DNA from: a virus
Lineage: Duplodnaviria > Caudoviricetes
IMG/VR virus record: IMGVR_UViG_3300011335_000134
Coordinates: 1-36,195 of that record
DNA length: 36,195 nt
Direction: 5' to 3' (one strand)
Positions 1 through 36,195 of the stretch are shown piece after piece (position 1 is the first letter of the stretch; each line of letters opens with the position of its first letter). A program made the translations under genes and the position numbers. The notes below the pieces were generated by a model. The model was not told where the DNA came from, searched no databases, and saw only the letters and a list, made by a program, of their open reading frames with translations.

Positions 1-222
1 ACATCAATTCTACTTGTGCCAGCAAATAATGGTCCTGGATCAATCATTCCAATATGTCGCTCTTTGCGGCTGACTTTGGGGCAGGAGAAATACTTTTGGT
101 AGTCTGGGATTTCACCTAAGACATTGGCGGGGAAGCGGCCAGCATCGTTAGCAACTGGCACTTGTTCTGGTTTTAGAACAGTTGTCATTGAATCACTCAT
201 TTCAGTTGTGTCAGCATATACT
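1..222. repeat. Terminal direct repeat (circular assembly overlap), copy 1
   Basis: 1-222 matches 35974-36195 except at position 85 (G vs T) and 127-129 (GCG vs CTT); the methyltransferase frame runs through it. Confidence 0.97.
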
Positions 223-881
223 CCTCGTTTTGATAGTTGGGGTGTTTCGCCAGGCCATGGCACTCTAGTAGCATCAATGTTTATGGCACCTGTGCCATAC
301 TTCAAGCAGTTCTCACGGATGCTGGTTTTAATAGGTTTGCGGGCCAAGGCGATTGGTTCGTGTGCTGGCTTTAAGGCTGTGCCCCAACCTGACCATTGCT
401 GTGCTTCAGGATCTGTGACTTTAGGCTTGCCAACTTGTGTTTCTTTGGTGCTCCACTCCTGGCCAACTTTTTGTCGTGCTACATCCATTTGACCAAAGCC
501 AGCATTCTTTGTAGTATCAACAAAGCCTTCATATTCTTTAACGCCAAGTTTTCTTTGTATCTGCTTGCCAATATCCTGACTCTTGGGAAAGCCACTTGAA
601 TAGATCCACATAATCTGATCGCGGATCTCAAAGCCTGCCGCTTCTAATGTGATGGCCAAGTGATGGTAAGTTCGTGCGGCTGAGAATGCCAAGATATGAC
701 CACCTGGTTTCAATACGCGAAGGCATTCTTGGTATGTCTCAACGGCTCCTGTATTAGCATCCCAGCTCTTGCCTAAGAAGTCAATGCCATAAGGTGGGTC
801 AGTGATAATGGCATCTATGCTGTTGTCAGCCAGGGTTTTTAAGGTGAGTCTATTGTCACCTGTTAAGATAGTGTAGTTCAT
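1..881 (-). CDS. DNA methyltransferase (N6-adenine/N4-cytosine, beta class), N-terminal part; continues across the circular junction to 35652 (about 400 aa in total)
   Basis: Absent from the ORF track because it runs off the end. Manual translation from ATG 881 (RBS AAAGGA) gives MNYTILTGDNRLTLKTLADNSIDAIITDPPYGIDF...ECLRVLKPGG...GFEIRDQIMWIYSSGFPKS...GWGTALKPAHEPIALARKP...GRFPANV. It has the DPPY catalytic motif IV and is in frame with ORF 35652..36173. Confidence 0.95.
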   Translation of the reverse strand, partial: MNYTILTGDNRLTLKTLADNSIDAIITDPPYGIDFLGKSWDANTGAVETYQECLRVLKPGGHILAFSAARTYHHLAITLEAAGFEIRDQIMWIYSSGFPKSQDIGKQIQRKLGVKEYEGFVDTTKNAGFGQMDVARQKVGQEWSTKETQVGKPKVTDPEAQQWSGWGTALKPAHEPIALARKPIKTSIRENCLKYGTGAINIDATRVPWPGETPQLSKRGVYADTTEMSDSMTTVLKPEQVPVANDAGRFPANVLGEIPDYQKYFSCPKVSRKERHIGMIDPGPLFAGTSRID

Positions 882-930
882 TTTGTTTCCTTTGTAGCAA
901 CTATACTAGTAGTTATCCTATGGCAGAATG

Positions 931-1137
931 TCAGTCTTGTTCGTCTAATAGATCTGGGTCAAAGTCAAGTTCAAAGCCTTCTCCACCTAGGATTTGGCTA
1001 TAAGCATCATCTACGCAGTTCTTGAGAACTTGTATGGCTTGATACCCACCTTTGGATTTTGGATGAGCAATGGCATCATTTAGATACATTTGTATTATCA
1101 GATGTGCTTTGGCAGTTGCTTCTTTGTAATAACTCAT
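931..1137 (-). CDS. Hypothetical protein (68 aa, acidic C-terminus)
   Basis: ATG preceded by GAGGAA RBS; same strand as neighbours. Confidence 0.7.
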   Translation of the reverse strand: MSYYKEATAKAHLIIQMYLNDAIAHPKSKGGYQAIQVLKNCVDDAYSQILGGEGFELDFDPDLLDEQD

Positions 1138-1199
1138 TTCTGATTCCTCTTTGAATTACTTATTGAGATTTGTTGTCTGCTACGCACACAACACATACA

Positions 1200-1430
1200 T
1201 TCGCTTCGCTGTCGCTTCGCTTCTGTATGAGTCTTTTGTAAAAGTAATTTGTCTTCTAGGCGTAGCCTCTCGCAGAGAGCGTAGCAGAAGTCAAATTCGT
1301 CTAGTGCGTTAGCACTGGACGACTTAATCAACAAACACAATCAACAATATTCATTCAAGCAGTTCATAGGATAGCAACACAATTTTTTCTTGGGAGAAAT
1401 TGTGTTAGCAGATGTCCAATCTGGATTAGT
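1200..1430. other. Structured, probably non-coding region with clustered mini-hairpins; candidate replication origin or ncRNA
   Basis: GCGAAGC twice on minus (1203-1209, 1214-1220); AGGC-GTA-GCCT (1258-1268); CTCTC-GCA-GAGAG (1267-1279); GCGTAGC (1279-1285); GTCTAGTGC-GTTA-GCACTGGAC (1299-1320); AACACAATTT...AAATTGTGTT (about 1376-1406). Confidence 0.4.
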
Positions 1431-1597
1431 TGTTCCTTAGAACCCACCATGTTTATCTAAATTATACCCTTGGCCTAATCAGCCTAGCATATAACTTCTC
1501 TTGTTCCTTGCGTCTTTGATCACGGACTTTTAATCCAACCCTCATTTGTAGGTAACCGCATTAGCCTAGGCTGCTTACGCCATTGGCTAGGGAAAAG

Positions 1598-1897
1598 TTA
1601 TAGCATACGGGTGGGTGCTGTTTTCACCCCACGGTTTGCTTTTTTATATTTGAGCCAGCGTTTGTCGCGTTTGATTCTTTTGTTGAGTGTATGGTTGTCT
1701 TTGAGTGAGAGTTTGTCTCTATTGGGAGTAGTTGCTAGTTTTAAGCCTGAGTTGATACAGACTACAATTTCTTCATTGGTGAGCCATTTAATCCAGTGTT
1801 TGTGGGGTTTACAATATAAGCCTATGTGCGGACCTTGTTTTTGTAATTCACAAGGACAGCGATCGTGTAAATTTGGTTTGAATAATGTATTAGCCAT
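1598..1897 (-). CDS. Hypothetical basic protein with Cys/His cluster (possibly Zn-binding or nucleic-acid-binding)
   Basis: CPC...H..LYCKPHKH motif and Lys/Arg-rich C-terminus; TATACT -10-like box upstream. Confidence 0.6.
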   Translation of the reverse strand: MANTLFKPNLHDRCPCELQKQGPHIGLYCKPHKHWIKWLTNEEIVVCINSGLKLATTPNRDKLSLKDNHTLNKRIKRDKRWLKYKKANRGVKTAPTRML

Positions 1898-1946: not shown

Positions 1947-2267
1947 TTAACCAAAGATGTCGCTTAAACGATCTTCAATTTCACTACGGCGTGCAACCAA
2001 TTCAGGAGCACTATCTGCGTCAATAACATTGCCACGCAGTTTGCCTTTAGGGAAGCGGATCAGCACATCACGATAAGGACGACTTAGGATTTCTTCCCAT
2101 AACTTACAGTTCTTGAAACCTTCTACAATGTAGGTCCTATATTCTTGCTGGTCTAGGACACCTTTGAAGATGATGTGTATAGTAGGGATGCCCAGGGTCT
2201 TGCTGACCTTGCTGTCTGCGGTCCATTGTTTAACAATGGTAAATTCTTGGTTTAAATGTAATTTCAT
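1947..2267 (-). CDS. Hypothetical protein (about 106 aa, beta-rich)
   Basis: ORF 1947..2288; ATG 2267 (MKLHLNQEF) preferred because of an AAGG RBS; lies directly downstream of a sigma70-type promoter. Confidence 0.7.
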   Translation of the reverse strand: MKLHLNQEFTIVKQWTADSKVSKTLGIPTIHIIFKGVLDQQEYRTYIVEGFKNCKLWEEILSRPYRDVLIRFPKGKLRGNVIDADSAPELVARRSEIEDRLSDIFG

Positions 2268-2308: not shown

Positions 2309-2337
2309 AGTATATAGCATCTTTGTGCAAAAGTCAA
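2309..2337 (-). promoter_or_regulatory. Sigma70-type (early) promoter
   Basis: Minus strand TTGACT (2337-2332), 17-nt spacer, TATACT (2314-2309). Confidence 0.7.
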
Positions 2338-2558
2338 TCGTTATGGCAGAATTATTGCAGTTTTGAATACACACGCACTTTTCGTTACGATAACTATATT
2401 ATACACTACCTGCAATGGGCAAGTGTTAGGACTACAACACAATGTGTTTTTTATAGCCATTTGAAACGCCTCTTGGTAGTCTGGTAATTGAAGTCTGGAC
2501 TGTCTGATCAACAGTTTACCGTGGGTTTTAGTAAGGCATTTCCCACAAAAGGACTCTT

Positions 2559-2849
2559 TTATTTTTCGCTTATGGTCCTACCTGTTGTCATCATAACTAC
2601 TGTAAAGTCAGTAGTCTCAAACTTCTGATTCAACTTTTCAGCGAGGTTAAAAGCATGGCCAGGCGTAGGAAAACTAGTCTTAGCATATTTAGGACCAGGG
2701 TAATCAATTTCAATGTTGGCCTGCGTTTTAATCTTGATAGGACGCCCTTTATAACACACCGCGAAAACAGCATCCGCTTCACATACCTGATAGGCACTCA
2801 TGTCTGGGCCTATACTTTCAAGAAGCACACGGGGCTTAGGTCTTGACAT
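2559..2849 (-). CDS. Conserved phage protein of unknown function (MSRPKP...YPGPKY.KTSF..PGHA.NLA.KLN type), 96 aa
   Basis: ATG 2849 with AGGA RBS; from recollection it resembles a small conserved protein of large uncultured aquatic myoviruses (not verified by search). Confidence 0.75.
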   Translation of the reverse strand: MSRPKPRVLLESIGPDMSAYQVCEADAVFAVCYKGRPIKIKTQANIEIDYPGPKYAKTSFPTPGHAFNLAEKLNQKFETTDFTVVMMTTGRTISEK

Positions 2850-3447
2850 GTGGATTTCCTGCTTGTAATCTAATGCCTGCTCGTTTGGCAATACCTTGAA
2901 CTGTTGCTTGCGACACACCATGCTTCTCACCAATTTCACGACAGTTCAAATACTTGTGGTTTAGGTCTGCTATTACTTCAGCTAAGTTGTATTTCTTTTT
3001 GTAGTGCGTTTTACAATCACCAAATAAGGGAGCACCTGGTGAGTTGGGTGGGCGTATCTTATTACCAGTTTCATCTCTAGGGGGAGGTTCCCAATGGTAA
3101 GTCATGGTTTGAACATGACCTTTCAACCAGGCTATAGCACCTGATGCTCGTGCCAGTTCAATCCAGCGTAAGGGATCCAGTGTGCTGACTATAAGCATAC
3201 GCCATTCAGGATCACGGTAACTTAATGCCCAAGGCTCATTCAACAAGTGTTCAAATGGCACATCAAGTGGCATGACCACTGCGGCTCTAATGTGTTCTGT
3301 TGTTACTGTTTCACTTATAAACTTATACTCTGTGGCACCCACTGCTAATCGTAATACACTTTGTGGTGTTGGATATGGGATAGTGTAAGTTCTGCCAGGA
3401 CCGCGGTAATGTGGATACCACTTGTTTGCTACTAACGAATCTGTCAT
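2836..3447 (-). CDS. Hypothetical protein with C-terminal helix-turn-helix
   Basis: LNCREIGEKHGVSQATVQGIAKRAGI is a typical HTH pattern. Confidence 0.7.
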   Translation of the reverse strand: MTDSLVANKWYPHYRGPGRTYTIPYPTPQSVLRLAVGATEYKFISETVTTEHIRAAVVMPLDVPFEHLLNEPWALSYRDPEWRMLIVSTLDPLRWIELARASGAIAWLKGHVQTMTYHWEPPPRDETGNKIRPPNSPGAPLFGDCKTHYKKKYNLAEVIADLNHKYLNCREIGEKHGVSQATVQGIAKRAGIRLQAGNPHVKT

Positions 3448-3448
3448 G

Positions 3449-3967
3449 TTAAACCGCTACATCAAAAATAACGCTGATTCTATCTTCTGTGGTGTTGTTC
3501 CAACTACAATGAACCTGTTTGTTGTTAAACCAAAATAGTGTGCCTGGCTCAATAGTTCTGCGTGTGTCTTCCACTGTGTAAATGTAGGTGCCTGTAATAG
3601 CAATATGATAGCGATGTCTTTGTTTATAATACTCACCATCATCCATGTGCGGGAACACAAACTTACCTGGCAACAGTTTGACAATGGCTATCCTTGCCAC
3701 CAGTTCAGGTGGAAAGTATTTGTAAATTAGTTTGAGTGTTTCTGGATAGCGTTTGAATACTTCAGTGGGCTTGTATTGGTGGTTGTCTCTATGATCCGCA
3801 ATAGGAACAGGACTCCATGATTTTACAAGATTGATTGTTTCAGTGCCACCTTGTTCATACAGCAAGGTTTGACGCTTGGTGTCAAGTAGCCAGTTTTCTG
3901 GCTGTGCTTGTATTTCTTCTGCGGCCTTGGCCACATTGAAGTTTTTGGTAATAATTCGTATGCTCAT
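3449..3967 (-). CDS. Aspartyl/asparaginyl beta-hydroxylase-like 2OG-Fe(II) oxygenase
   Basis: LLPGKFVFPHMD (HxD), RYHIAI, GTLFWFNNKQVH (distal His) and WN..TEDRISVIFD (2OG-binding Arg). Confidence 0.88.
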   Translation of the reverse strand: MSIRIITKNFNVAKAAEEIQAQPENWLLDTKRQTLLYEQGGTETINLVKSWSPVPIADHRDNHQYKPTEVFKRYPETLKLIYKYFPPELVARIAIVKLLPGKFVFPHMDDGEYYKQRHRYHIAITGTYIYTVEDTRRTIEPGTLFWFNNKQVHCSWNNTTEDRISVIFDVAV

Positions 3968-3978: not shown

Positions 3979-4266
3979 TTACTTTAAATGAACCACGATG
4001 TAGCCAAGCAATCCAAGTAGGCCAACTATGATACTGCCAGCAACAGTGACCATGGTCTTAAACTTTTCATCTTTGGCATGTGTTAACATACTTTTGATTT
4101 CATTGAACTGAGTATCGTTGGTTGTTTTTAATTCTTTTAAATCAGCACTGATAGCGTCTACACGATCTTCAATATTGTCCATACGATTTTCCAATGCTTT
4201 GTAGCGTTCAGCACACACTTGTTCATGTGTGCTGAGCCTTGCTTCTGTTGAGTCTATTGTTGACAT
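3979..4266 (-). CDS. Holin-like/XhlA-like membrane protein (coiled coil plus one C-terminal TM helix)
   Basis: RLSTHEQVCAERY motif, heptad coiled coil and hydrophobic VTVAGSIIVGLLGLLGYIVV; directly after the tail fibre; ATG 4266 with GGAG RBS. Confidence 0.6.
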   Translation of the reverse strand: MSTIDSTEARLSTHEQVCAERYKALENRMDNIEDRVDAISADLKELKTTNDTQFNEIKSMLTHAKDEKFKTMVTVAGSIIVGLLGLLGYIVVHLK

Positions 4267-4267: not shown

Positions 4268-7200
4268 TTATGCTCCAACTGGTGTCACTGTTAATGCTGT
4301 TGATGGAATACCAGGAACAACACCTGCGGCAGCCACATATTCTAAGATAACTGAAGTATCTGTTGCAGCCCATGCAAGTTCATAGTAGTCGCCTGCTGCC
4401 GCTGTGACCAAATAATTCCATGACGCCATAATACGATCACCGTTGCCAGCAATACGAGTATCACCTGCTGTGTTAGCAACTGTGGTGCCGTTCTTCTTAA
4501 TCCAGATAAAGGAATTGTGTGCGCCGCCTGCTGATTGGCTTAACTGTGCTGAAAACTGCAGGTTGTAAATGCCTGCGTTGGCAAAAGTAATACGAGTTAG
4601 TGCTGTGCCATTGCTTACAATAGTCACGCCGTTGTTGGCATTTGTGGTGCCAAATATCATCAAGTTTTCTGCGTTGGCCACAGGATTGGCTTGTGTCACA
4701 AGGCTGGAAAAATCACCGTATTGACGACTGTAAGTGACTTTATTGCCAGGTAAACTTGCACCTGCGGCTGTTTGTAATGTGACAGCATCACTTTTAATTG
4801 TGGTTGCTAACTGTGTAAATTCAGCAGTTATAGCACTTGTGCCACCACCTGCAGGTGTTGCCAGGATCTTTGTTGAGGCTCTACTACCAATGTAGATACG
4901 ATCAGTGTCTGCTGTAAACGAGTCATCACTTACACTCAAACCAATTTCGTTATCGCCACTTGATTTGTAAGTGCCATCAATACGAGCAAAGTTACTACTT
5001 GTTACTGTGCCAGCAACACCTAAACGGAAGTCAGTGCTTTCATTATCTGCTGGGCCTGCCGCGGCTGTTTGTTGAGTCAGTAATAAACCAGTGCCTGGAG
5101 TGCTTCTGCTAATTGTAGTTCTACCACTATTGGTAATTTGTGCTGAGCCTGACGCAAAAGTTGCGTAGGCTGTTCCACTGGCTGCCAAGGTAGTTGATGT
5201 TGGAGCAAATGTAGCCACTGTGCTGACAGTTGAAGCACCTGGTGTTCCACTTGCTGTTCCTGCGCTAATTGTGGTTTGACTAATCTTACTTTGTAATGTT
5301 GCCAGTCCACTAAATGTAGCACCTGTTTGATCACCATTGGCCAAATATAATGTCCAGGCATTATCACCACCTGTTCTATAGACTGCTGACATATCAGCAA
5401 TGGTATAGTTTGTAGCATTTGAACCATTAACACGATAACGGAAACCTGTGCCATCTTGGTCATTTGGTGCGGCCTGATCACTACGGCTCAACTGAATGTT
5501 GAAACTTGGGCGGCTTTCTAACACACCAGGAGTGCCTACAGTGGTTCTTGTAATTGTGCTTAAACTTGTGCCACGAATATCTGTGCCAGTTGATACGGCA
5601 GTAATATAAGTGCTTGTGCCTGCTGTGTTTTTAACTGTAAATGTGTCTTGGTTGATACTACCAGTAGTAGCACCAAGTGTCATGTAGTTGGTTGCTGTCA
5701 GTGTGCTACCAGTAATAACTTCGTTGGCAAAAGTATATGCGTTAGATTTAAATGTGGCCGCACTAGCTGTTAGATCCATAAAGTTGAATCTGTTGGCAGG
5801 AGTTATGTTAGTGCTGTTGGCAAAGCCACGAATTCTAAAGCCCATACCAGCGGCTGTTACAGTATTAGCCGCCGCAATAGTTCCACCACTGGTAAAGCCT
5901 GTTGTAGCATTGGCATAACTGATACTTGAAGTTGTTGCGGCAGTAATTGTATAAGTGCCGTTGTAGCCACTTGGTGTCATGCCAGCAATGGTCACACTTT
6001 GACCCACAGCGTATGGTGCTGTGTTTTGTGTTGTAAATAAGAGTGTTGCTACTGAACCTGTTCCTGACGCACCTGTCACTGCTGTTGTAAAAGTAGTTGA
6101 GTTGGTAAATGCTTGACGAGCATAACCTTGTGCTTGTATTGGTTGAACAGCAACAAAGCCACCACCAGCATTGGCAGTAGCAATTTGTGAAACATAGTTG
6201 TTTGAAGTGCCTGCTGTATAACCATCAAAGTTTAATGCGCCTAATACTTGGTTAGCACTTGAACCTGCTGGTGCTGAACTACTACCTGTGGCACTTGACA
6301 ATACTAATGAAGCGGCATTGTTAACACCAGCACCTGTATCACCAGAATGATATCTGGCTGCAAAACTGGCTCCATATCCATTGGCACCACCAGCACTTGA
6401 AACAGCAACTACACCGTTATTGCCTGAGGCTGTGCTTAATGCACTGGTTGGTGGGACATAAGTTGTATTTTGTGTAACTAAAACTTGGCTACCGTTCACA
6501 GTCAAGTTGCCACTTGTGACTACTCGTTCAGCACCATCAGTTGAATCAATTTTTAAGATGCCTGCTTTGCCAGTAGCACCAATGCTTAATGCACTGGCGT
6601 TGTTGTCAACCACAGTCCATGTTTGTGCTACTGTGCTTGATATGTTAGGATCAGCAAGTTGTATGATACCACTGGCGCTGTCTAAGATTAGGTCACCAGT
6701 TGTTGTGCCAATTGTGTTATCAGTAGCAACACCCACTGTGATATTACCTAATGTGGCGCCTGATGCACTAAAGTTGCCAGAAGCATCACGAGCAACAATA
6801 GTGCTTACTGTGTTGGCATCTGTAGCATCACTACCTAATGTGACTTCTGTGGCACTGGTGTATGTGGCTGTGATGTGGCCAGCATTTGTTAGTTTAACTG
6901 TGTCAGTGCTTGAGTCTGAACCAGTTAAGTTTAAGTTAGCACCACCTGTTGCGCTTGTTGCCGCAAAGTCATAAGTTGTATTTGGACCAACTGGAGCATC
7001 AATTGTAATTTCATTTGGAGAAGTTTCACTAACAGTCACATTAGTGCCACCCAGGAACTTTGTTGATCCAACAATAGTAACAGTTGCACCAACAATTTCT
7101 TGTAAGTCTAATTCAACACCGCCTGTAACAGGCACAACATTTGTATCGTATGTTGGAACATTTGGAATTAGTCCATCAACATAACTCTTGGTTGTCAAGT

Positions 7201-8536
7201 CAGAGCCAACAGTAGGACCTGCTGGATTGATTGTAGCGTATTGTGTAGCACCATCTCTAATGCTAATGCTATCTCCACTGGCATTTAACACGCCAGCAAT
7301 GTATTCACCACTGACAATACGGAATGGTTCTGTTGTGCTACCTGTTGCTTGAACAGATAAGAACTTGTTGTTTGACGCATCATTCGTATTAGCAACACTC
7401 ATTGATGCTGCCGCACTTGTAGTAGCGTTTGGTGCTCTGACACGCCAGCCTGAAGTATTACCAGTTGTGCTTATAACACTAGGACGATTCAAGCGGTTGT
7501 TGTTTTCGCTATAACTGAATGCTGTATCTTGTGCCAAACTAACACTATTACCACCAATAGTTAAGTCATTGTCAAGAGCCAGGCTACCTGTGCTATCCAG
7601 GATCATCTTAGAAGTATATGCCGCACCATTCTCCATCAAACCAAAATACATTGAGAAGTCTTCACTGCCTGCTGTAATGTCAGTTAAGTTTACGCCAATA
7701 TAACCTGCTCGTTCAATATTGCCTGGTTGTGCTTCAACTTGCCATTCTAATGTATTACCAAAGCCCACAGCAGGTGTAAGAGAAGTTTCTGCACTTAATG
7801 CCAATGATCTAACAGCAGTAGTAACAGCACTATTTCTTGTTATCAAAGTTGGACCATCGCTACCACTGGTGATGTTGACACCATTATTACCAGTAGGAAG
7901 TAAGTTAAGATCACCACTTGTAGTAGCAATGGTATTTCCATCCACAACACCAATGGTGATGTTGTTAAAGTCGCCACTGTCTGCTACCAAGTTGTTGCGG
8001 ATTGTGGTAGTGCCAGTTGTTGCACCCATTGTAAGTGTAGTAGCACCTTGGAAAGCATTTACTGTAGTTGGACTATTCAACAAGAAGAAACTTGAACTGT
8101 TTGTGCTTAAAATACTTGTTGTGTTAGTATCAATCTCACCTGTGGCACTTTGTAATACAAGTTGGCCACTTGTGGTGTTAATAGTGTTGTCAGTTGTAAC
8201 ACCAATGGTGATGTTGCCAAAGTCAGCACCGCCACCGTTAATTGTGCCATTTACTACCAAGTTGTTGTTGATTGTTGTAGTGCCTGTGCTGGCACCAATG
8301 TTAACACTTGTAGCGGCATTACCCAAGTTAATGGTTGTTGCGTTAGTGGGGAAGATATTGCCAGTGGCTGCTGTAGTAAGAATGTTGCCTGACAAGACAT
8401 ACAAGTCTCCGCGAACAACTACATTGCCTGAACTATCTGGAATGGGCGTGCCAGCCTCACCATACAAACTGGTTGAGTTGCCTGAATTTGTGTTTTGTGT
8501 GGTTACTGAGCCGTATAAACTTGAAGAACTTGTCAT
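4268..8536 (-). CDS. Tail fibre / receptor-binding protein (1422 aa)
   Basis: Thr/Gly/Ser/Ala-rich; repeats G/NNITI/VGV..D/.NTI.TT.G.L.L (x3) and TT.N....AT....GA.TGTTTI.NNL (x2); C-terminal C1q/BclA-like jelly-roll pattern (GIYNLQFSAQL...WIKKNG...GDYYELAW); follows the adaptor. Confidence 0.85.
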   Translation of the reverse strand: MTSSSSLYGSVTTQNTNSGNSTSLYGEAGTPIPDSSGNVVVRGDLYVLSGNILTTAATGNIFPTNATTINLGNAATSVNIGASTGTTTINNNLVVNGTINGGGADFGNITIGVTTDNTINTTSGQLVLQSATGEIDTNTTSILSTNSSSFFLLNSPTTVNAFQGATTLTMGATTGTTTIRNNLVADSGDFNNITIGVVDGNTIATTSGDLNLLPTGNNGVNITSGSDGPTLITRNSAVTTAVRSLALSAETSLTPAVGFGNTLEWQVEAQPGNIERAGYIGVNLTDITAGSEDFSMYFGLMENGAAYTSKMILDSTGSLALDNDLTIGGNSVSLAQDTAFSYSENNNRLNRPSVISTTGNTSGWRVRAPNATTSAAASMSVANTNDASNNKFLSVQATGSTTEPFRIVSGEYIAGVLNASGDSISIRDGATQYATINPAGPTVGSDLTTKSYVDGLIPNVPTYDTNVVPVTGGVELDLQEIVGATVTIVGSTKFLGGTNVTVSETSPNEITIDAPVGPNTTYDFAATSATGGANLNLTGSDSSTDTVKLTNAGHITATYTSATEVTLGSDATDANTVSTIVARDASGNFSASGATLGNITVGVATDNTIGTTTGDLILDSASGIIQLADPNISSTVAQTWTVVDNNASALSIGATGKAGILKIDSTDGAERVVTSGNLTVNGSQVLVTQNTTYVPPTSALSTASGNNGVVAVSSAGGANGYGASFAARYHSGDTGAGVNNAASLVLSSATGSSSAPAGSSANQVLGALNFDGYTAGTSNNYVSQIATANAGGGFVAVQPIQAQGYARQAFTNSTTFTTAVTGASGTGSVATLLFTTQNTAPYAVGQSVTIAGMTPSGYNGTYTITAATTSSISYANATTGFTSGGTIAAANTVTAAGMGFRIRGFANSTNITPANRFNFMDLTASAATFKSNAYTFANEVITGSTLTATNYMTLGATTGSINQDTFTVKNTAGTSTYITAVSTGTDIRGTSLSTITRTTVGTPGVLESRPSFNIQLSRSDQAAPNDQDGTGFRYRVNGSNATNYTIADMSAVYRTGGDNAWTLYLANGDQTGATFSGLATLQSKISQTTISAGTASGTPGASTVSTVATFAPTSTTLAASGTAYATFASGSAQITNSGRTTISRSTPGTGLLLTQQTAAAGPADNESTDFRLGVAGTVTSSNFARIDGTYKSSGDNEIGLSVSDDSFTADTDRIYIGSRASTKILATPAGGGTSAITAEFTQLATTIKSDAVTLQTAAGASLPGNKVTYSRQYGDFSSLVTQANPVANAENLMIFGTTNANNGVTIVSNGTALTRITFANAGIYNLQFSAQLSQSAGGAHNSFIWIKKNGTTVANTAGDTRIAGNGDRIMASWNYLVTAAAGDYYELAWAATDTSVILEYVAAAGVVPGIPSTALTVTPVGA

Positions 8537-8545
8537 GTGCGATCC

Positions 8546-10341: not shown

Positions 10342-10348
10342 TATTTAG
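10342..10348 (-). promoter_or_regulatory. T4-late-like promoter box CTAAATA, leaderless start
   Basis: CTAAATA-ACACT-ATG(10336); no Shine-Dalgarno. Confidence 0.7.
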
Positions 10349-11591: not shown

Positions 11592-11610
11592 GATTTTATT
11601 CCTTTATGAA

Positions 11611-24207: not shown

Positions 24208-24208
24208 G

Positions 24209-26842: not shown

Positions 26843-26855
26843 ATATTAGATTCCT

Positions 26856-27596
26856 TTATTTAATTGGGGCATACATATCGCTCCACTTAGCACCAATATT
26901 ATAACCAGACTGGTTAGTTGTTTGTCCAACTGGTCCATAGTTGTTATAACTTGACGCTGGTGTTCCAAATGCCAGTGTGCCATATCTGTTAAACAAGTCT
27001 TGCGGAGCGCCAGCGGCATTCAATCTTGAAGCATAAGCACTCATAGCATTGTTTAATCCAGACTGTCCAATACCTGCTAATTGACTTGCGGCAGCGGCTC
27101 GTTGTTGAGCAATCTGATTACTAACACCTGCGGCTGTTTGTGCTTGTAGGGCTTGGTTAGCACCTGCGGCTTGACGACCTGCTAAGGCTTGTCTTGCGCT
27201 ACCTAATCCACCAGCACCACCAAACTGCGCTTGTTGTTGAGCAATGTTCTGTTGATACTGTCCTTGTGCTGGAGCCAGTGCGGCTTGGATTTGATTTGCT
27301 TCGTAATTCTTACCAAACAAGTTCTCTAAGCCACTGACACCAGTGCGTAGGGCTGACTCACCTGTTTCACCAAGTGTCATACCTGCTTGGCCAGCTGTGC
27401 GTCCCAAGTCTTGAGCGGCTCGTTCATAGCCTGGCGCCATTCTATTGTATAATTCAGTGCCACGACCTAGGACATCCTGGTATGTGGGCTGAACTGTTTT
27501 AGTAAAGAAGTCTGTTTGCGCTTTAATATATTGCTTTTGTTCATCACTTAGATTAGGGATTGTAGTTGAACTGCCCCCACTTTTTCCAAAACTCAT
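26856..27596 (-). CDS. DNA transfer/pilot-type ejection protein (Gln/Ala/Gly-rich, 246 aa)
   Basis: G.SGGSSTT start, GGLGSARQALA motif and helical Q/A runs; position before the SLT protein. Confidence 0.7.
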   Translation of the reverse strand: MSFGKSGGSSTTIPNLSDEQKQYIKAQTDFFTKTVQPTYQDVLGRGTELYNRMAPGYERAAQDLGRTAGQAGMTLGETGESALRTGVSGLENLFGKNYEANQIQAALAPAQGQYQQNIAQQQAQFGGAGGLGSARQALAGRQAAGANQALQAQTAAGVSNQIAQQRAAAASQLAGIGQSGLNNAMSAYASRLNAAGAPQDLFNRYGTLAFGTPASSYNNYGPVGQTTNQSGYNIGAKWSDMYAPIK

Positions 27597-27617
27597 ATTC
27601 GTTTTCCTTTAATGTAA

Positions 27618-27624
27618 TATTTAG
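27618..27624 (-). promoter_or_regulatory. T4-late-like promoter box CTAAATA heading the ejection-protein operon
   Basis: Intergenic, 21 nt before ATG 27596. Confidence 0.65.
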
Positions 27625-27628
27625 TCAT

Positions 27629-28822: not shown

Positions 28823-29452
28823 TTAATGGATGGGGCCAAAGTCTGGTTCAGTCTTGAACTTCTTAACATACGCATTCCAACTCATTGCAAAGTCATCTAG
28901 AGTAAACAGACTAATCAATTCTTTTTGTTGGATATAATTTTCTGGATGTGTTGCTATTGTTTTATTCATTAACGCAACATACTGATCAGCAATGGGCAAT
29001 CCAAATGCTTCTAATACTCTAACACCATTCTTTAGGGTGTTTTGACTACCAGCAACATCATCTACTAGCAATACTGGTTTGCCATTAGGGCGACCTTCAC
29101 AGAAGTTTAGTAGTCCATATACCTTACGGTTCTTCTTGATTGAGATCATTGTTGTGCCCAACACAGTGGCCATAGCAAGGCCCAACACTACACCTGCGTC
29201 TTCGCAAGCACAGATCTGCACATCCTTATTGGGCAGTTTCTCTACTAACAATTCAGCCGCTGTGAATACAAACTTGGGATCAAACATACAACGGCGCAAG
29301 TAAACTTGCCATGTGTAATATGTGTTGGGTGCTTTACCAGGGATTGGACGATGTCCTGGGGCTACTCTATAAACAGCCGTATGCTCTATCATATCATGTA
29401 GATAAGCCATTTTGGTTTCTCTTGAGGCCAGGGGCATTTGTGTATTAATCAT
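28823..29452 (-). CDS. Type I phosphoribosyltransferase (PyrE/Apt-like fold)
   Basis: ICACEDAGVVLG, IKKNRKVYG flexible loop and VLLVDDVAGSQNTL PRPP-binding loop; ATG 29452 with AAAGGA RBS. Confidence 0.85.
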   Translation of the reverse strand: MINTQMPLASRETKMAYLHDMIEHTAVYRVAPGHRPIPGKAPNTYYTWQVYLRRCMFDPKFVFTAAELLVEKLPNKDVQICACEDAGVVLGLAMATVLGTTMISIKKNRKVYGLLNFCEGRPNGKPVLLVDDVAGSQNTLKNGVRVLEAFGLPIADQYVALMNKTIATHPENYIQQKELISLFTLDDFAMSWNAYVKKFKTEPDFGPIH

Positions 29453-29462
29453 TTCATTTCCT

Positions 29463-30437
29463 TTATTGTTTGACAACCTGAACGCTCATGCTACGGTTGA
29501 AAAACTTGCTTTGAGGAAAGACCACATCACCAGAAATGATGTCAATCTCTACTTCAAGTATATACCAATAGTAGCCCAGGCCTGGTGTATCAATAATACT
29601 TGTGAATATGGTTTCTAAAGGTGGCGCTGTCTTATAATAACTGGTGCTGTCTGGAGCAGGTGGTATAGTTCCTGAGCCTGCTGGCACTTTTAAGAAGTAG
29701 TTCTTAACTGCCACAGTTGAACTGTCACCAAACACAAAGTCAGGATTGATAGGATCATTGTTGTTAAAGGCTGTGCGTCTTGTTATTGTTACTGAGTATT
29801 CAAACTCACTTGCTGTGGTGCAGGTATAACTCAACAAGTTGTTTAACTGTCCACTAATGAACACTCTATCTGTGGCACCATTTACTGTTACTTTGGCTTG
29901 ACAGTCTGTTGACACTAACGCACCTCTGTAGAACGCATCATAGAATATAGTTCCGCCACCTGCCGCTGGGTATGTCAGACCATCTCCATTAAATCGTGCT
30001 ATAACATATTCAGTTGTGCATTCAACTACACCAGTTGGACTATTACGACCATTGTAGTTGCCATTCACGCCAGCAATAATAATAGGATTACCAATGGCAA
30101 ATGGTGGTGTGGCTTGTGTTTCAGCAAATGTATACTTGGCTGTTCTACTATCAATGTATTGACTTAGGGCCAGGGCAATAGGCGCAACATAAGTTTTGGT
30201 TGCTGAACTATCATTTGTAAAGGGTGTCCTAAAGTTGCCTGTTAGATACGCTGGTGTGTTGGCAGGAATCTGAGCAGGCAAGTCATACTTGGCCAGAGTG
30301 GCTTCATCATAATACTCAATGGTGGGATTGGTAAAGCCAGCAAAGTTTTGCCCTAGGCCACTGGGACCTGAAAGCAAGTTATTGACAGCATCAATGATGC
30401 CATCCTGGTCTTTTGATTCAACTGGATACTTGGCCAT
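29463..30437 (-). CDS. Tail-associated structural protein (324 aa)
   Basis: Coupled to the nozzle gene; contains the PFAIG..I.I.GV...YNG beta-domain also seen in the tail fibre and nozzle. Confidence 0.7.
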   Translation of the reverse strand: MAKYPVESKDQDGIIDAVNNLLSGPSGLGQNFAGFTNPTIEYYDEATLAKYDLPAQIPANTPAYLTGNFRTPFTNDSSATKTYVAPIALALSQYIDSRTAKYTFAETQATPPFAIGNPIIIAGVNGNYNGRNSPTGVVECTTEYVIARFNGDGLTYPAAGGGTIFYDAFYRGALVSTDCQAKVTVNGATDRVFISGQLNNLLSYTCTTASEFEYSVTITRRTAFNNNDPINPDFVFGDSSTVAVKNYFLKVPAGSGTIPPAPDSTSYYKTAPPLETIFTSIIDTPGLGYYWYILEVEIDIISGDVVFPQSKFFNRSMSVQVVKQ

Positions 30438-33400
30438 TATCTGTCATCCTCTGTTTGTGTATACTGCCATGTGGTGCTGTTACAGATCCAAATGTTTTCA
30501 GTGCTACTATTACTAATCTCTAGACTGTTGACACGATGTGCGTTCTGTGTAATCTGAACCCAAGGATAATCAGTATTGGTAGCCATGGTAATTGCTGTTG
30601 TTTCTAATGGTGCTTGCCCTACTGAGTTAGCACCTTCTACTTTGATGCTGACACTACCAACCAAGTAATCTTCTTGCACTGGGTTAACTGGCAAGCCAGA
30701 GTATGCCAAGTTGTTGACTTCTGGTAGGATACGATGAACCAACAACTTACCTGAGTAGTTGTCCAGGATCTTGATGTTGTCTCGTCTGAAGTTACTTTGA
30801 ACAGGATACTCTCTTGTTTGTGGGCCTAAGAAGTTATAACCTTCATCCTTGGTCACCAAGTTTCTATCTGTTATACCACGAGCATACACCACTGTTCTGC
30901 GTCCATCATTGTAGGTCCATTCATTGGCTCCTATGCCTGCTACAGTTAAAGTTAAGATTCTACCATTAAAGTTAGTTGCAGTGACAGTTACAACTGCGTC
31001 ATTGGCAGGAGTGTTGCCACCCAATGCTGTGCCTAATATCTTAATGGTATCTCCCACTGCATAACCTGATCCACGCACATTGGGTGTAACGCCACCTGTA
31101 TAGCCACTAGCATAGCGTAGTATGTTAAAGTGAGCACCAGTGCCAGTGCCTGTTAAGGTTGTGCCTGGCACATTGAAATACCATTGCTGGCTTGTCCATA
31201 CAGGACTTTCAGTAGCAAAGGTTGCGGCTTGAACTTCACGAGGTGCGTTAAAGCAGTCTAGGTCATGTCTGTAAGCCAACATCATGTTTGGCACGCCATC
31301 ACTTTCAAAGTCAAAGTCTACACCTAATACACTACCTGCTGTGGTTGTTACACCTGCGCCAGTTGGTGTCTCACTTAGTTGAAAGTATGTTACTCCATCT
31401 AGTGTGTAGTTGTCAACAACATAGTAAGTTGTTGGGCCACCAGTATAACCTGAGATACTGCCTGTGCCTGACTCAGTGCCACTTAGGATTACACTTAGTC
31501 CATTATGCATTGGACCAGTATCATAACCATACTCTAAGGCACAACTGAATGTGCCTGCTGTATCTACAATGGCTATGCCACTGATTACAGGAACCTTTGT
31601 GGGATAGTAAATCTCAATCTGATTTTTCTGTGTGTTGGACTGCATGAACACACGCTCAGTGTAAGCAGGATCTAGTTGATCATAGAACCAGTTCTTAACA
31701 CGCTGGTTGCCAAGGCTCTTAAAGTCTTGTCCATCAAATACCCAGATATCTCTAGCATCTAAACCATACACCATCTTGTCTGTGTTGGCCCAGCAGTTGC
31801 TTGTAAGCATACCACGACCTTGGTTGTGTAGTCTAACACCCAGAATAGGAGCTGAAGTGGTTGAATAGTTTAGCGGACTGAACACTACAGTATCCCAGTA
31901 TGAACTTAGGAAGAACTGTCCATTACAAGGGAAACCATCAATCACTGTGCCACGCAAGGGAACTTCAAGTTGGTTGGCCACATTAAGAACAGTTGGCTCC
32001 CATGTGTCAGGTGCTTCACTAAGACCAAACGCCTGACTCCATTGAACTGTTACTGGATACTCAACAATGCTGCCATCTAGTTCTGTTACTGTGAGACCAC
32101 CTGCTACCAAGATACAGCCCACATTGGGAGTATTGTATAAGCGCATGAACTGAGCGTGATAACCTATCCAGTTGGGATTATAGTTCCAGGCATACAAGGG
32201 AGCAACTGAGCCACCGCCTGGATAGGCTGCACCAGGCACGCTTGAGTATGTTATGGTATCTACAGTAGAACTTACAACTGTAAATGTTCCGTTGTAGTAA
32301 TTGGAGACACCTGAGATAACAATCTTATCACCAGTGGCATAAGGTGCTACTGCGTATGGTGTCTTCAGAGTAATCATTTGTGTGGTGGCATCTACATATT
32401 CAATGTCACTGATGTCACCAGGAACTGTATTGCTATACATGATCATGATGGGATGTGGATCACTGACACTACCAGGTGTTGTTTGTGGTCCTGCTGTAGT
32501 GCCAGCATAACTTACACTTGATTGCGTAACGCCTGTCACTATCTTAGTGCCACGGAAGCCAGTGGGCACAATGTTCTCAACTAGAATCTCTTGTCCAATA
32601 GCAAATGGGCTATACACAAATGTCTTTCCATCTAGTGTGCCTGCATCAGTTGTTATAGGAGCGCCAGCAAGTGTAGCACTCAGCGTAAATTGGTTATTGG
32701 CATTGGTGCTGACAATGAAGTATGTGCCGTTAGCAACTAAAGGAGGTTGAACACGCACACCAACAGCAGTGGTAACCAGGCCACCAGATGTTTCAATAGC
32801 ATCGCCAATGGCATCAACTAGAGTAAAGTATGTGGCACCATTTGTCTCACCAATGTAATAGGTTGTAGGATCAGAGTAGCCAGTTATTGAGGGGGCCAGG
32901 ATAGTATATGTTAAACCAGTTGGTGTTCCACCTGTTGTGTCAATGGCATTACCTTCAGCATCCACAAGTTTAAATGTTGTTAGACCGTTTGTGCTTTTAA
33001 TAACATAAGTTGTTGGATTGGTATAACCCACAATGGCAGGCTTTAGAACTTTGACTGTGGCACCTACACCCAAACCACCTGTTGTCACAATAGGCTCTAA
33101 TGTGTCTTTGTTTACCAGAGTGAATTCAGTTGATCCATTAGTGGCACTTATTAGATAACTTGTGGGACTAGTATAGCCTTGAATGTTTGGTGCCAGTAGC
33201 GTAAAGGTTAGACCAGCCAAGGTGCCACCTGTTGTCACTATAGGACTCCCATCCATATTGGTCAAGGTGAATGTTGTTGTGCCGTTAGTGGTCTTGATCA
33301 GATAGTCTTTGGGATTACTATAACCCACAATGGCAGGTGCGCTGACATTATAACTTAGACCAGTTGGAGTGCCTGGCACACTGGCTATGGCTGCTCCTGC

Positions 33401-35461
33401 TGTTGTGGTCAGCGTGAATGTTGTTGAGCCATTGGTAGCACTGATCAAGTATGTTGTTGGATTGGTGTAACCTACTACACCTGGAGGAGTAATAGCAAAG
33501 CCCAAGTCAGTTGGTGTGCCAATGTTGGTTACAAGTGCTGTGCCTTCTGCTGTGGTCAGAGTAAAGGTAGTTGTTCCATTGGTTGCGCTTATGGTATAAA
33601 CTGTGGGATTGCTATAACCAAAGATTGTTGTTTCATTTACATTTAAGGTTAAGCCTGCTGTAGTGCCAGCTGAGGTCACAATGGCATTACCACTTGTGTC
33701 TGTCAGCGTAAAGGTTGTTGAACCATTTGTGGCTGAAATACTGTAGGTAGTTGGGTTTGTATAACCTGTAATAGTTCCTGTGCCAGTGCGAGCGCCTGAG
33801 ATGGTAATGGTCTGTCCAACCTTTAAAGTTGATGTTGAAGCCGTGCAACTGAACTGTCCACCAGCACCAGTTATGGCAACACCACTAAGTGTAAAGCCTG
33901 TGTCCGCACCTGTGACTGCAATGCTCTGACCAATTGCTAGAGTTGTTGCTGTGCAACTAAACTGTCCTGCTGTGCCAGTTGCCGCAACACCAGCCAGTGT
34001 AGAACCTGTTGAAGTATTGGTTCCACTTATGACTACACTTTGGCCTTTAACAAGTGTAGCGGCTGTGCAACTGAACTGTCCAGTTGTGCCTGTGATCTTT
34101 ACTGCGCTGAGACTCTGTGGAGTCAGAGTGGTATCACCAGATACTCTAATGGTCTGTCCTGTCAACAGCGTTGTTGAGCCACATGAGAACTGTCCAGCAA
34201 TGCCTGTGGCTGCCACAGTGGTAAGTGCTACTGCTGGTGTTGAAGCGGCACCTGTTATCTCTACTGTTTGTCCAGTTTGGTATGTGCTTGCCGCACTTGA
34301 GAACTTGCCTGTGTTATCTAATATCCTAACTGAACTCAGAGTGGTATCAGTATTTGATATGGCACCTGATATGGTTAAACTTTGTCCTGCTCTAATGGTT
34401 GAAGTTGAACAACTAAAGTCCCCAGTGGCACTTTGGATCTGAACACCACTTAAGACTGTTGTGGCAGTTGGGAAGGTGCCGCTGATGATAACACTCTGAC
34501 CTTGTGTTAAAGGATACTGGCGCTGTCCTGTTATGGCTGTTCCAACAGCAATGGTCTGAGTCTTGCTCACTGTCCATACGCTGGCACCAGTTGAACTACC
34601 AGAAACATAAGCACTGATGTATGTGTCAGCAAGTATCTTTGTTCCTGTTGAGTCTGTGCCACTTAATAACATACCATTGTAGATAACGCCAGGACTTGTG
34701 ACTGAGGTAACTGTTAAGGTTGTGCCTGAGATGCTACCAACAAAGTCTGCTGGCAACATCATATTTGTAAATCTAAACTCACCTGTGTTGTTGGCTATGC
34801 TTACTTCATTTGCTCTGCTGGCATGCGTATTGGTGTTGGTTCCCCCTATGGTAATCTTCTGACCTGTCTTTAAGGTCTCACCTGATGTGTATACAAATGT
34901 GCCTGTGCCACCTGTATCAGTTCTAATGATGCTGACACCAGACACTTCATCTGCTTGTGGGGCAAAGGTCAGTGTGCTTGTGCCTGCGGCTGAACTTGCT
35001 GTTAGTGTTTCAAAACTCTGACCAGTGAACTCAGGCCAGAACATTGGAGGGTTGGATTCATCATTGTAGAAAGGAACAGTTCCATTCCAGGCTTCTGTAA
35101 TGTTAGTGCCTTGAGTATAGGTGGCAAATGGACCTTCTGCTGGCGTAATGTCTTGCCAGTCTCCATCACCATTTGATGCTAACCATTCACCTTCTGTGGT
35201 GGCCACAACAAAGTAGAAATCATTTTGTCTACCTGCTTGAGGCTTACGATATCCTGCACTCACAAAGGTTGGTGTGCCAGGAACAATGGGCAGTATAATC
35301 TCATCACCTGCTACTGAGCGTATGCCACGGATGTCTGTCTCCACATTGAGGCCACTGTTGTATTCATTTGGTCCTAATGCGCTGGATGGCACATCAGGAC
35401 TGAAGGTCATCTTTTGAAAAGGTATCTTGGCCTCTTCATATGCTTTTTTGGTTTGTGCCAT
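30437..35461 (-). CDS. Tail nozzle / DNA-stabilisation (beta-propeller) protein with large inserted beta-domain arrays, 1674 aa
   Basis: Propeller-like core segments (N-terminal SPD...NV, VQWS, DIWVFDG...LG..RVK.WF, EI.YP) interrupted by Thr/Gly-rich repeats; first gene of the tail/ejection block. Confidence 0.72.
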   Translation of the reverse strand: MAQTKKAYEEAKIPFQKMTFSPDVPSSALGPNEYNSGLNVETDIRGIRSVAGDEIILPIVPGTPTFVSAGYRKPQAGRQNDFYFVVATTEGEWLASNGDGDWQDITPAEGPFATYTQGTNITEAWNGTVPFYNDESNPPMFWPEFTGQSFETLTASSAAGTSTLTFAPQADEVSGVSIIRTDTGGTGTFVYTSGETLKTGQKITIGGTNTNTHASRANEVSIANNTGEFRFTNMMLPADFVGSISGTTLTVTSVTSPGVIYNGMLLSGTDSTGTKILADTYISAYVSGSSTGASVWTVSKTQTIAVGTAITGQRQYPLTQGQSVIISGTFPTATTVLSGVQIQSATGDFSCSTSTIRAGQSLTISGAISNTDTTLSSVRILDNTGKFSSAASTYQTGQTVEITGAASTPAVALTTVAATGIAGQFSCGSTTLLTGQTIRVSGDTTLTPQSLSAVKITGTTGQFSCTAATLVKGQSVVISGTNTSTGSTLAGVAATGTAGQFSCTATTLAIGQSIAVTGADTGFTLSGVAITGAGGQFSCTASTSTLKVGQTITISGARTGTGTITGYTNPTTYSISATNGSTTFTLTDTSGNAIVTSAGTTAGLTLNVNETTIFGYSNPTVYTISATNGTTTFTLTTAEGTALVTNIGTPTDLGFAITPPGVVGYTNPTTYLISATNGSTTFTLTTTAGAAIASVPGTPTGLSYNVSAPAIVGYSNPKDYLIKTTNGTTTFTLTNMDGSPIVTTGGTLAGLTFTLLAPNIQGYTSPTSYLISATNGSTEFTLVNKDTLEPIVTTGGLGVGATVKVLKPAIVGYTNPTTYVIKSTNGLTTFKLVDAEGNAIDTTGGTPTGLTYTILAPSITGYSDPTTYYIGETNGATYFTLVDAIGDAIETSGGLVTTAVGVRVQPPLVANGTYFIVSTNANNQFTLSATLAGAPITTDAGTLDGKTFVYSPFAIGQEILVENIVPTGFRGTKIVTGVTQSSVSYAGTTAGPQTTPGSVSDPHPIMIMYSNTVPGDISDIEYVDATTQMITLKTPYAVAPYATGDKIVISGVSNYYNGTFTVVSSTVDTITYSSVPGAAYPGGGSVAPLYAWNYNPNWIGYHAQFMRLYNTPNVGCILVAGGLTVTELDGSIVEYPVTVQWSQAFGLSEAPDTWEPTVLNVANQLEVPLRGTVIDGFPCNGQFFLSSYWDTVVFSPLNYSTTSAPILGVRLHNQGRGMLTSNCWANTDKMVYGLDARDIWVFDGQDFKSLGNQRVKNWFYDQLDPAYTERVFMQSNTQKNQIEIYYPTKVPVISGIAIVDTAGTFSCALEYGYDTGPMHNGLSVILSGTESGTGSISGYTGGPTTYYVVDNYTLDGVTYFQLSETPTGAGVTTTAGSVLGVDFDFESDGVPNMMLAYRHDLDCFNAPREVQAATFATESPVWTSQQWYFNVPGTTLTGTGTGAHFNILRYASGYTGGVTPNVRGSGYAVGDTIKILGTALGGNTPANDAVVTVTATNFNGRILTLTVAGIGANEWTYNDGRRTVVYARGITDRNLVTKDEGYNFLGPQTREYPVQSNFRRDNIKILDNYSGKLLVHRILPEVNNLAYSGLPVNPVQEDYLVGSVSIKVEGANSVGQAPLETTAITMATNTDYPWVQITQNAHRVNSLEISNSSTENIWICNSTTWQYTQTEDDR
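32609..34945 (-). repeat. Two abutting intragenic repeat arrays: 8 x A (about 38 aa) then 8 x B (about 49 aa)
   Basis: A = L..V.I.G..GQFSC..TL..GQ.I.ISG (34945-33773); B = I.GY.NPT.Y.I..TNG.T.FTL....G..I.T..GT..GL (33772-32609). Confidence 0.9.
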
Positions 35462-35487
35462 TGGCTATGGTCCTTTAGTTATTGAAC

Positions 35488-35494
35488 TATTTAG
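35488..35494 (-). promoter_or_regulatory. T4-late-like promoter box CTAAATA heading the tail operon
   Basis: Intergenic, 26 nt before ATG 35461 and just downstream of a hairpin. Confidence 0.65.
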
Positions 35495-35504
35495 TGCCAA
35501 AGGT

Positions 35505-35537
35505 AAAGCCCATGATGCTTCACAGCATGAGGGCTTT
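35505..35537 (-). terminator. Imperfect stem-loop after the methyltransferase gene
   Basis: AAAGCCC...ATGCT-TCAC-AGCAT...GGGCTTT; T-rich continuation on minus. Confidence 0.5.
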
Positions 35538-35651
35538 GGTTTCATCTTAGGCTGTTATTCTGCATGCCTACTGTTACTTATGGTGCCGCTAGACGCAGTT
35601 GAATCCTTTTCAAGCCTAATACTATTGTAGATCTAATACTATAGTAAAGTT

Positions 35652-36195
35652 TCACTCAAACAACTCCTTGGCTGGGTCTCTAGTGGCCGCATACCAAGCC
35701 TCTATACGCTTACTGGCTATAGTCACATAAGCAGGGTCTAACTCGCAACCAATGTAAGGGTGCCCTAACTCTACAGCCGCACAGCCAGTTGATCCTGAAC
35801 CGTTGAATGGATCAAGGACCGTGCCACCTGGTGGTGTGACAAGTTTGATTAGATACTTCATCAGTTCAATGGGCTTGACTGTGGGGTGATTATTAGTGCC
35901 TTCTGGTTGATTTTTTTCAATCTCACTAAAGTTTTTTCCTTCTTTTCGTTCCCCTTCTTTACCACTCATATATACATCAATTCTACTTGTGCCAGCAAAT
36001 AATGGTCCTGGATCAATCATTCCAATATGTCGCTCTTTGCGGCTGACTTTGGGGCAGTAGAAATACTTTTGGTAGTCTGGGATTTCACCTAAGACATTGC
36101 TTGGGAAGCGGCCAGCATCGTTAGCAACTGGCACTTGTTCTGGTTTTAGAACAGTTGTCATTGAATCACTCATTTCAGTTGTGTCAGCATATACT
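35652..36195 (-). CDS. DNA methyltransferase, C-terminal part (SAM-binding motifs)
   Basis: NNHPTVKPIELM.YL..L (motif X), VLDPFNGSGSTG (motif I FxGxG) and IGCELD; in frame with 1..881. Confidence 0.95.
   Translation of the reverse strand, partial: VYADTTEMSDSMTTVLKPEQVPVANDAGRFPSNVLGEIPDYQKYFYCPKVSRKERHIGMIDPGPLFAGTSRIDVYMSGKEGERKEGKNFSEIEKNQPEGTNNHPTVKPIELMKYLIKLVTPPGGTVLDPFNGSGSTGCAAVELGHPYIGCELDPAYVTIASKRIEAWYAATRDPAKELFE
35974..36195. repeat. Terminal direct repeat, copy 2
   Basis: 218 of 222 positions identical to 1-222. Confidence 0.97.

Follow-up and report, generated by a model that had tools for sequence, protein, structure and literature searches.

How the virion genes of a tailed phage come to be transcribed when they lie behind what look like T4-type late promoters, and when the genome has no recognisable gene for the sigma factor that reads such promoters, is the question raised by the IMG/VR record IMGVR_UViG_3300011335_000134, analysed here over its whole length of 36,195 nucleotides (the window). 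The window holds the entire genome of an aquatic SU10-like podovirus, with all the genes needed for a virion. Comparative sequence evidence suggests that it is probably a virion-building satellite, taking its late transcription from a co-infecting helper; as a class, and naming no individual phage, the most likely helpers are the group-2.2 jumbo phages.

Late-promoter-type boxes and the virion operons

The heptamer CTAAATA occurs ten times on the minus strand of the window, its coding strand, and never on the plus strand. Nine of these ten copies lie within 50 nucleotides (nt) before one of 33 curated starts (binomial p 8e-12, a value slightly flattered by a few starts having been chosen with the box in view), and the placement ranks top of 105 letter permutations. 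Raw-count enrichment of the TAAATA core was dropped as a measure, the 15 copies seen falling under the shuffle mean of 22.3; the signal thus resides in position and strand rather than in abundance. With such a strand bias and proximity to starts, the claim of the initial annotation that (C)TAAATA boxes head the structural operons is borne out. When TAAATA variants are counted in, the gap between box and start is exactly 5 nt for three boxes, each facing an ATG, and 14–46 nt for the others, giving two layouts, leaderless (5-nt gap) or with a ribosome site, neither of them with a -35 element. In T4 the late box TATAAATA spans -13 to -6, the predicted late box of Aeh1 is CTAAATA from -12 (PMC1524935), and a -35 is absent from T4 late promoters (PMC2988020); by this spacing, a 5-nt gap would place +1 on the ATG itself. 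In sequence layout the window boxes accordingly fit the T4-type late promoter, the TAAATA core ending about 6 nt before the predicted +1 and a -35 being absent.

Along the minus strand, CTAAATA boxes head the scaffold and capsid genes (12812..12818), the portal gene (15491..15497), the operon ending in the terminase gene (18719..18725) and, directly after a hairpin, the tail operon (35488..35494). Another copy, 5 nt before an ATG, is predicted to be leaderless (10342..10348), one lies at 20304..20310, and three boxes (26857-26862, 27618-27624, 28803-28809) belong to the ejection/core block. The box at 20659..20665, again 5 nt before an ATG, stands back to back with a plus-strand TAAATA (20686..20691) heading an acetyltransferase gene (20713..21204, phrog_1249), the sole real plus-strand gene of the window, which the initial annotation had overlooked together with its box and which is kept in 11 of the 12 genomes compared. 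The opposed boxes of this 20659-20691 stretch head the acetyltransferase on one side and a likely small terminase (20303..20653, minus strand, leaderless) on the other, a layout kept in most relatives.

Relatives of the large terminase are encoded on 282 IMG/VR stretches, none of the best 80 lying on a contig longer than 37,094 bp, and the gene order is kept in ten near-complete relatives. Of the 390 TAAATA copies counted in 21 family genomes, 196 are no more than 70 nt from a start, their distances peaking at 4–6 nt (42 of the 196) and 17–27 nt, so that the motif scan of related genomes proposed by the initial annotation came out in its favour. The 196-site profile has no upstream consensus, TTGAC being scattered in only 18 of the 196. 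As a control, the circular 41.8-kb relative MW202484 (capsid 62%, terminase 50% identical), which carries an initiator, an endolysin, ERF, SSB, Cro and RusA, has only one of its 17 TAAATA near a start. These comparisons bear on the idea that a sigma factor of the host reads CTAAATA. The -35 element of sigma-28 resembles CTAAA, which counts for this idea; a -35 could not lie as close as 5 nt to an ATG, however, the family profile holds no conserved second element, early promoters are canonical sigma-70 sites, and the box is not in use in the relative MW202484, all of which makes a host sigma very improbable. Reading the boxes as archaeal TATA elements was likewise set aside as unlikely, since an SLT domain and a sigma-70 promoter are present.

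Jumbo phages as candidate helpers

None of 22 small genomes gave a gp55 match (12 searched with two profiles, 10 further ones with one), and the same profiles match T4, PA5oct, Atu_ph07 and five of nine partial large contigs carrying a gene that the window shares with large phages. This gene encodes a 96-aa protein (2559..2849, minus strand) common to group-2.2 jumbo phages at 42–55% identity. It has 2025 database relatives, and its cultured-phage matches are 15 records, all of 284–490 kb (Phosso, the PA5oct group, Atu_ph07, SCTP-2). Of 80 IMG/VR loci with the gene, 79 are in surroundings of large-phage type, at least 20% of their length matching proteins from a set of five large genomes (which themselves supply four of the loci), and TAAATA is found upstream of the gene in all 22 large genomes listed versus none of nine small ones. 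A model of the protein (predicted local distance difference test, pLDDT, 73) found no PDB match and only uncharacterised viral relatives. Atu_ph07 belongs to jumbo subgroup 2.2, group 2 encoding sigma factors and gp33 (PMC7824862), and CBB has a gp55-like sigma with ATAAATA ahead of structural genes (PMC5259590). The best layout match is a 415-kb genome (G028) in which 65 of 137 TAAATA are near starts, 30 of them at 4–6 nt, in the same [CA]TAAATA layout. Apart from this likeness, G028 (L204-L223, L260) has 55% GC, about 30 leaderless genes behind [CA]TAAATA and numerous short proteins whose ends share an FK[LM]F-like motif.

A second link is a holin-like membrane protein (3979..4266, minus strand), also overlooked initially, whose homologues (47–53% identical) sit in large-phage fragments beside SSB, UvsX, primase, helicases including DnaB, and RNR. 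In two relatives (G002, G009) an AAA ATPase shares its PHROG with a large-phage AAA ATPase. Kinship of the Dps protein was rejected as a jumbo link, window and G028/G027 copies being only 27–33% identical. Taken together, the shared genes favour group-2.2 jumbo phages of the PA5oct, Atu_ph07 and SCTP-2 type over T4-sized myoviruses. The initial annotation had proposed late transcription borrowed from a co-infecting T4-like myovirus; box layout and gp55 distribution lend comparative support to the borrowing, but as donor the T4-like myovirus gives way to a group-2.2 jumbo phage.

The module formed by the holin-like gene, a helix-turn-helix (HTH) gene and the 96-aa gene also occurs in an unrelated lineage of 23–32-kb siphoviruses, whose terminase, portal and capsid are of other kinds and which have tape measure and tail genes, namely G035 and G054 (both with terminal repeats), G055, G053, G033 and G042 (e.g. 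L298/L299). G035 (23.5 kb) has nine boxes on the coding strand and none opposite, and 25 of its open reading frames (ORFs) gave no replication or endolysin match; G033 and G053 carry primase/helicase genes. The podoviral and siphoviral HTH subfamilies are homologous (probability 96%) and occur only on small contigs. Two siphoviral members hold further gene sets, in G055 (L368:16136-19496) a base-modification-like glucosyltransferase, pyrophosphohydrolase and thymidylate-synthase-like protein, and in G054 (L366:5070-6699) a glucosyltransferase and a ParB-like gene; modification-type genes of this kind possibly match or evade the DNA chemistry of a helper. A broader proposal, toward which the balance tips slightly, is that of a widespread aquatic guild of bacterial 'virophages', in which at least two unrelated tailed-phage lineages (36-kb podoviruses and 23–32-kb siphoviruses) would each on its own have brought its virion operons under the group-2.2 jumbo late sigma, swapping a helper-interaction module (holin-like protein, HTH protein, 96-aa jumbo late protein), and would range from self-replicating to wholly helper-replicated members.

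Missing functions, early region and rival explanations

The window closes into a 35,973-bp circle via a 222-nt end overlap (1..222 pairing with 35974..36195, 4 mismatches) inside a single ORF, an N6/N4 DNA methyltransferase (PF01555, phrog_67) whose N-terminal part (3..881, minus strand) runs across the junction and whose C-terminal part, placed by overlap and family scan, is at 35652..35973 on the same strand. CheckV gives the record as 100% complete. A 195-nt contig of run X1 equals 36042-36195 with 0 differences and continues to position 263, 41 nt beyond the overlap, and adjoining X1 contigs tile both flanks of the junction; run X1 is possibly the source sample, so that the bridging contig is not independent support. 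Three relatives (G001, G002, G011) of the same gene order close at genes other than the window's. The closure claimed from the end overlap is upheld by these data. It might be held that the circle is a spurious one, formed from a piece of a larger genome with its replication and sigma genes unassembled, and the four mismatches as well as the IMG/VR class 'linear' would agree with this; the bridged junction, the uniformly short contigs of the best 80 terminase relatives and the relatives closing elsewhere already largely refute it, and it is scarcely credible.

Family scans of the window covered Pfam and PHROGs (37 ORFs), PHROGs again for 6 re-trimmed ORFs, and NCBIfam (23 ORFs). No polymerase, primase, helicase, Rep/initiator, recombinase, integrase, sigma or free endolysin was matched in them, nor any partition or repressor-type gene, which substantiates the list of missing genes drawn up by eye beforehand. 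Searching the window by tblastn with the primases and helicases of relatives returned nothing significant, no tRNA or Rfam match was found in it, and 870-2600 holds no iterons. As for sigma factors, nothing turned up beyond an HTH match to Sigma70_r4 that stays below threshold (E 0.037), in 2836-3447, and the sole lytic domain is an SLT domain in an 877-aa virion protein that also matches an 'endolysin' PHROG (1.6e-9). Since a holin-like gene is kept and a free endolysin is missing, the endolysin would, given a helper, quite likely come from that helper.

The proposed course of infection would start with early genes read by the host sigma-70 RNA polymerase. A sigma-70-type early promoter (TTGACT-17-TATACT, 2309..2337, minus strand), overlooked at first, heads two small ORFs, and near-perfect sigma-70 sites lie in the same early slot of relatives; a count of such sites over 1-4400 gave no clear excess (14 against 10.1 +/- 2.7 expected), so that only this best site, echoed in relatives, was kept. 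Transcription of the virion operons from their -10-only CTAAATA boxes would require host polymerase associated with a gp55-type late sigma of the helper, and the helper's endolysin would lyse the cell. The helper's replisome would copy the window DNA, perhaps entering via a hairpin-rich stretch and an OB-fold protein, and would at the same time load the sliding clamp, a strong activator of T4 late promoters (PMC2988020). For the window member itself, supply of the replisome by the helper is favoured, if only somewhat.

The candidate entry points lie in the early region. The hairpin-rich stretch (1180..1340, minus strand), a putative origin partly common to L327, accounts for five of the genome's six GCT[TA]CGC-type words, which fall within 250 nt there; as a family-wide element the cluster was rejected, not being kept across the family. 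Behind the early promoter lie a 106-aa predicted OB-fold protein (1947..2267), also found in the siphoviral lineage, and a 99-aa ORF with invariant Cys/His that looks zinc-ribbon-like by eye (1598..1897), both on the minus strand. The model of the 106-aa protein is OB-like (pLDDT 79), and its top Foldseek rows are nearly all OB folds (E 0.02–0.1), with no Foldseek match at E<=0.001, no PDB sequence match and a best Atlas value of 0.81; the modelled protein does not look like an initiator and may be a single-stranded-DNA-binding adaptor. A C-terminal clamp-binding-like ending was not enriched among early proteins (8 of 720 against 9.4 expected).

The claim of a borrowed replisome fits the window member but does not extend to the family. 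Among the 13 near-complete podoviral members, four (G001, G004, G005, G010) have primase and/or helicase genes, as cassettes that we take to resemble satellite replicases, and in ORFs of two more (G007, G034) family-A polymerase-like motifs can be made out by eye. Such motifs were recognised in G007, G018 and G034 without library or PDB support; the replication-slot ORFs in question (L101:15998-17047, L305:1431-3071, L110:9032-10447; 349–546 aa) matched nothing in the Pfam, PHROG, NCBIfam and PDB scans run. Nothing replication-related was recognisable in the window's own genome (G000) or in G002, G003, G006, G008, G009 and G011, G006 and G034 having been scanned only in part. Of 160 selected non-core ORFs of ten relatives 149 were scanned (11 short opposite-strand ORFs were dropped), with no sigma and no endolysin among them. 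A close variant in runs X3 and X5 skips an Asp/Asn beta-hydroxylase-like oxygenase gene (3449..3967, minus strand, family scan), and its X3 contig jumps 1142-2282 (the intervening letters not known), from which the early slot appears exchangeable. In other members replication seems to be served by a primase/helicase cassette that sits in this slot and can be exchanged, which would make late-promoter dependence a family trait and replication dependence optional. In one relative (G032, L304) the segment 11913-18769 holds a row of small early genes with eight near-perfect sigma-70 promoters, like a host-takeover cassette.

Such variation, together with sigma-70 early promoters and the ParB-like gene of G054, could also be accommodated by a facultative exploiter, able to replicate or persist by itself in episomal form, to which the jumbo late sigma is no more than a trigger or boost for virions, and persistence would solve the problem of co-infection. 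The window scans, however, gave no integrase, partition or repressor-type gene or replicase, nor did a carrier chromosome appear among 185,579 genomes, whose capsid relatives are two short contigs in metagenome-assembled genomes (MAGs) with no prophage seen; this alternative is quite improbable. The two contigs (L296, L297) are phage contigs in an Actinomycetota MAG and a Dechloromonas MAG and are unreliable as host evidence.

A more serious contender, albeit still unlikely, is an autonomous phage, in which an unrecognised protein of its own (the HTH protein, or the product of a small conserved gene in 15500-20653) guides the polymerase to CTAAATA and host enzymes replicate the genome from a cryptic initiator. 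The 203-aa protein with C-terminal HTH (2836..3447, minus strand) has full-length relatives in small phages only, all 18 of 18 on contigs of at most 36.3 kb, and in one relative its C-terminus weakly matches a late-activator PHROG (E 1e-4); its N-domain found no Atlas and no cultured-phage match. About half of the window ORFs are without any family match, and 282 terminase relatives make an abundant family, a demanding state for an obligate co-infector. Against autonomy, four box-using members that are 97–100% complete (G004, G005, G008, G010) do without the HTH gene, so that its product is not a general box reader, the other conserved unknowns sit in box-headed operons and match no sigma family, and both the jumbo-shared genes and the missing free endolysin are left unexplained.

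Several further observations weigh against a satellite dependent on a jumbo late sigma. A quick, unrooted tree of the 96-aa protein (97 columns, 10 rows labelled small without known context) splits small-phage from jumbo copies (SH-like approximate likelihood ratio test 99), which indicates old sharing rather than recent capture and gives no direction. No gp55 match was found in G028, the best layout match (72% complete), or in nine large fragments with the holin-like gene (5–38% complete), which also had no 96-aa gene. ATAAATA is favoured by most of the large genomes looked at, among them G023, G024, G026 and PA5oct, versus CTAAATA in the window, and the PA5oct paper gives TATAATA/TTGAC promoters, not TAAATA (PMC7318152). 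Box-headed genes are few in siphoviral members (5/31, 3/32, 5/45). Finally, a cryptic factor may lie among six small conserved late-region proteins or in the HTH N-domain, and the SLT virion protein could double as a lysin.

The remaining genes, on the minus strand, are mostly those of the virion, an SU10-like morphogenesis module being present with capsid, portal, terminase and adaptor assigned by family matches and tail genes predicted. They comprise a 1422-aa protein, tail-fibre-like by composition and position, with an SU10-type adaptor (4268..9754), the major capsid protein (PF17236, E 8e-35) with a likely scaffold (10407..12765), the portal (13181..15463; PF23899, E 5e-46), the large terminase (15753..17369, family scans), likely ejection/core proteins including the SLT protein (21727..28780) and likely tail structural proteins of 324 and 1674 aa (29463..35461). 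Within this block, and unremarked before, lie a Dps/ferritin-like protein (21291..21722, TAAATA at 21728-21733, 5 nt upstream) and a phosphoribosyltransferase-like protein (28823..29476, family scans). Two low-complexity proteins with internal repeats and no family match, Gly/Asp-rich (27629-28780) and Gly/Pro-rich (18726-19277), also belong to it. The early region further contains a 68-aa ORF (931..1137, minus strand) common to G002 and G018, an 11-nt word repeated at 919-929 and 2342-2352, upstream of the methyltransferase and the early promoter, as a possible operator, and a conserved non-coding element after the 96-aa gene (2480..2560, minus strand). This last reads CACGGTAA...TGATCAG, is found in seven podoviral members including the window, and has no Rfam match.

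Relation to known phages, satellites and virophages

Should the satellite reading be true, ordinary-looking complete phage genomes in viromes would include obligate jumbo-phage parasites, detectable by the simple rule of late boxes without gp55, and modelling of jumbo-phage abundance and host mortality would be affected; a direct biochemical test is at hand in jumbo gp55 acting on window promoters. A survey of the literature (mostly main texts of non-subscription papers) found no virion-encoding phage using a jumbo late sigma. Whether undiscovered elements parasitise jumbo phages is called an open question in a 2026 review (PMC13282480), and another review names just one described capsid-encoding hyperparasite (PMC13359090).

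Among tailed phages, the SU10-like MW202484 and Sulfitobacter phage pCB2047 share capsid, portal and adaptor families with the window, and MW202484 also shares its gene order but differs in having an initiator, recombination genes and an endolysin and no boxes. T4-family and group-2.2 jumbo promoters have the same -10-only TAAATA core, Aeh1-type CTAAATA and spacing (PMC2988020, PMC1524935, PMC5259590, PMC7824862), but these phages encode the box-reading sigma, to which the window has no match; neither gp55 sigma nor family-B polymerase nor gp23-type capsid was found in its scans.

With satellites the window has in common its lack of genome-replication genes, although this is not family-wide, beside virion proteins of its own. 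P4, phage-inducible chromosomal islands (PICI), their capsid-forming kind (cf-PICI) and the PICI-like elements (PLE) of Vibrio cholerae likewise rely on a helper's transcriptional programme (PMC13595925, PMC10690885), PLE activation following transcription of the helper, whose helicase PLE uses (PMC13595925). They integrate and take helper capsids or tails, whereas the window shows no integrase or chromosomal residence and encodes capsid, tail and indeed the whole virion. The initial annotation had called this the reverse of the P4/PICI logic; own virion and missing integrase agree with that description, but MiniFlayer is an already described example (PMC10690885). The Streptomyces satellite phages MiniFlayer, MulchRoom and Ando encode capsids (PMC10690885, PMC13587820), the MiniFlayer group being described, like the window, with its own terminase, portal and capsid and no primase, and MiniFlayer itself as having no integrase, parasitising a virulent helper and binding its neck (PMC10690885). 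At 13–17 kb, with siphovirus helpers of about 130 kb, they differ from the 36-kb window with its full podovirus set; the main text of neither paper contains the word 'promoter', while the window would depend on a jumbo gp55-type late sigma. Neither MiniFlayer nor MulchRoom is among 15 capsid matches in a phage collection that may not include them.

The virophages Sputnik, Mavirus and Guarani build their own virion and have the giant virus late-promoter motif upstream of virophage genes (PMC6723459). They have eukaryotic hosts, PRD1-adenovirus-type capsids and virus factories, whereas the capsid, portal and terminase of the window are of tailed-phage type and not those of Maveriviricetes, so that the likeness is one of functional analogy without homology. 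The analogy extends to replication, for which Mavirus has enzymes of its own and Sputnik does not (PMC6723459), a parallel to the mixed state of the window's family.

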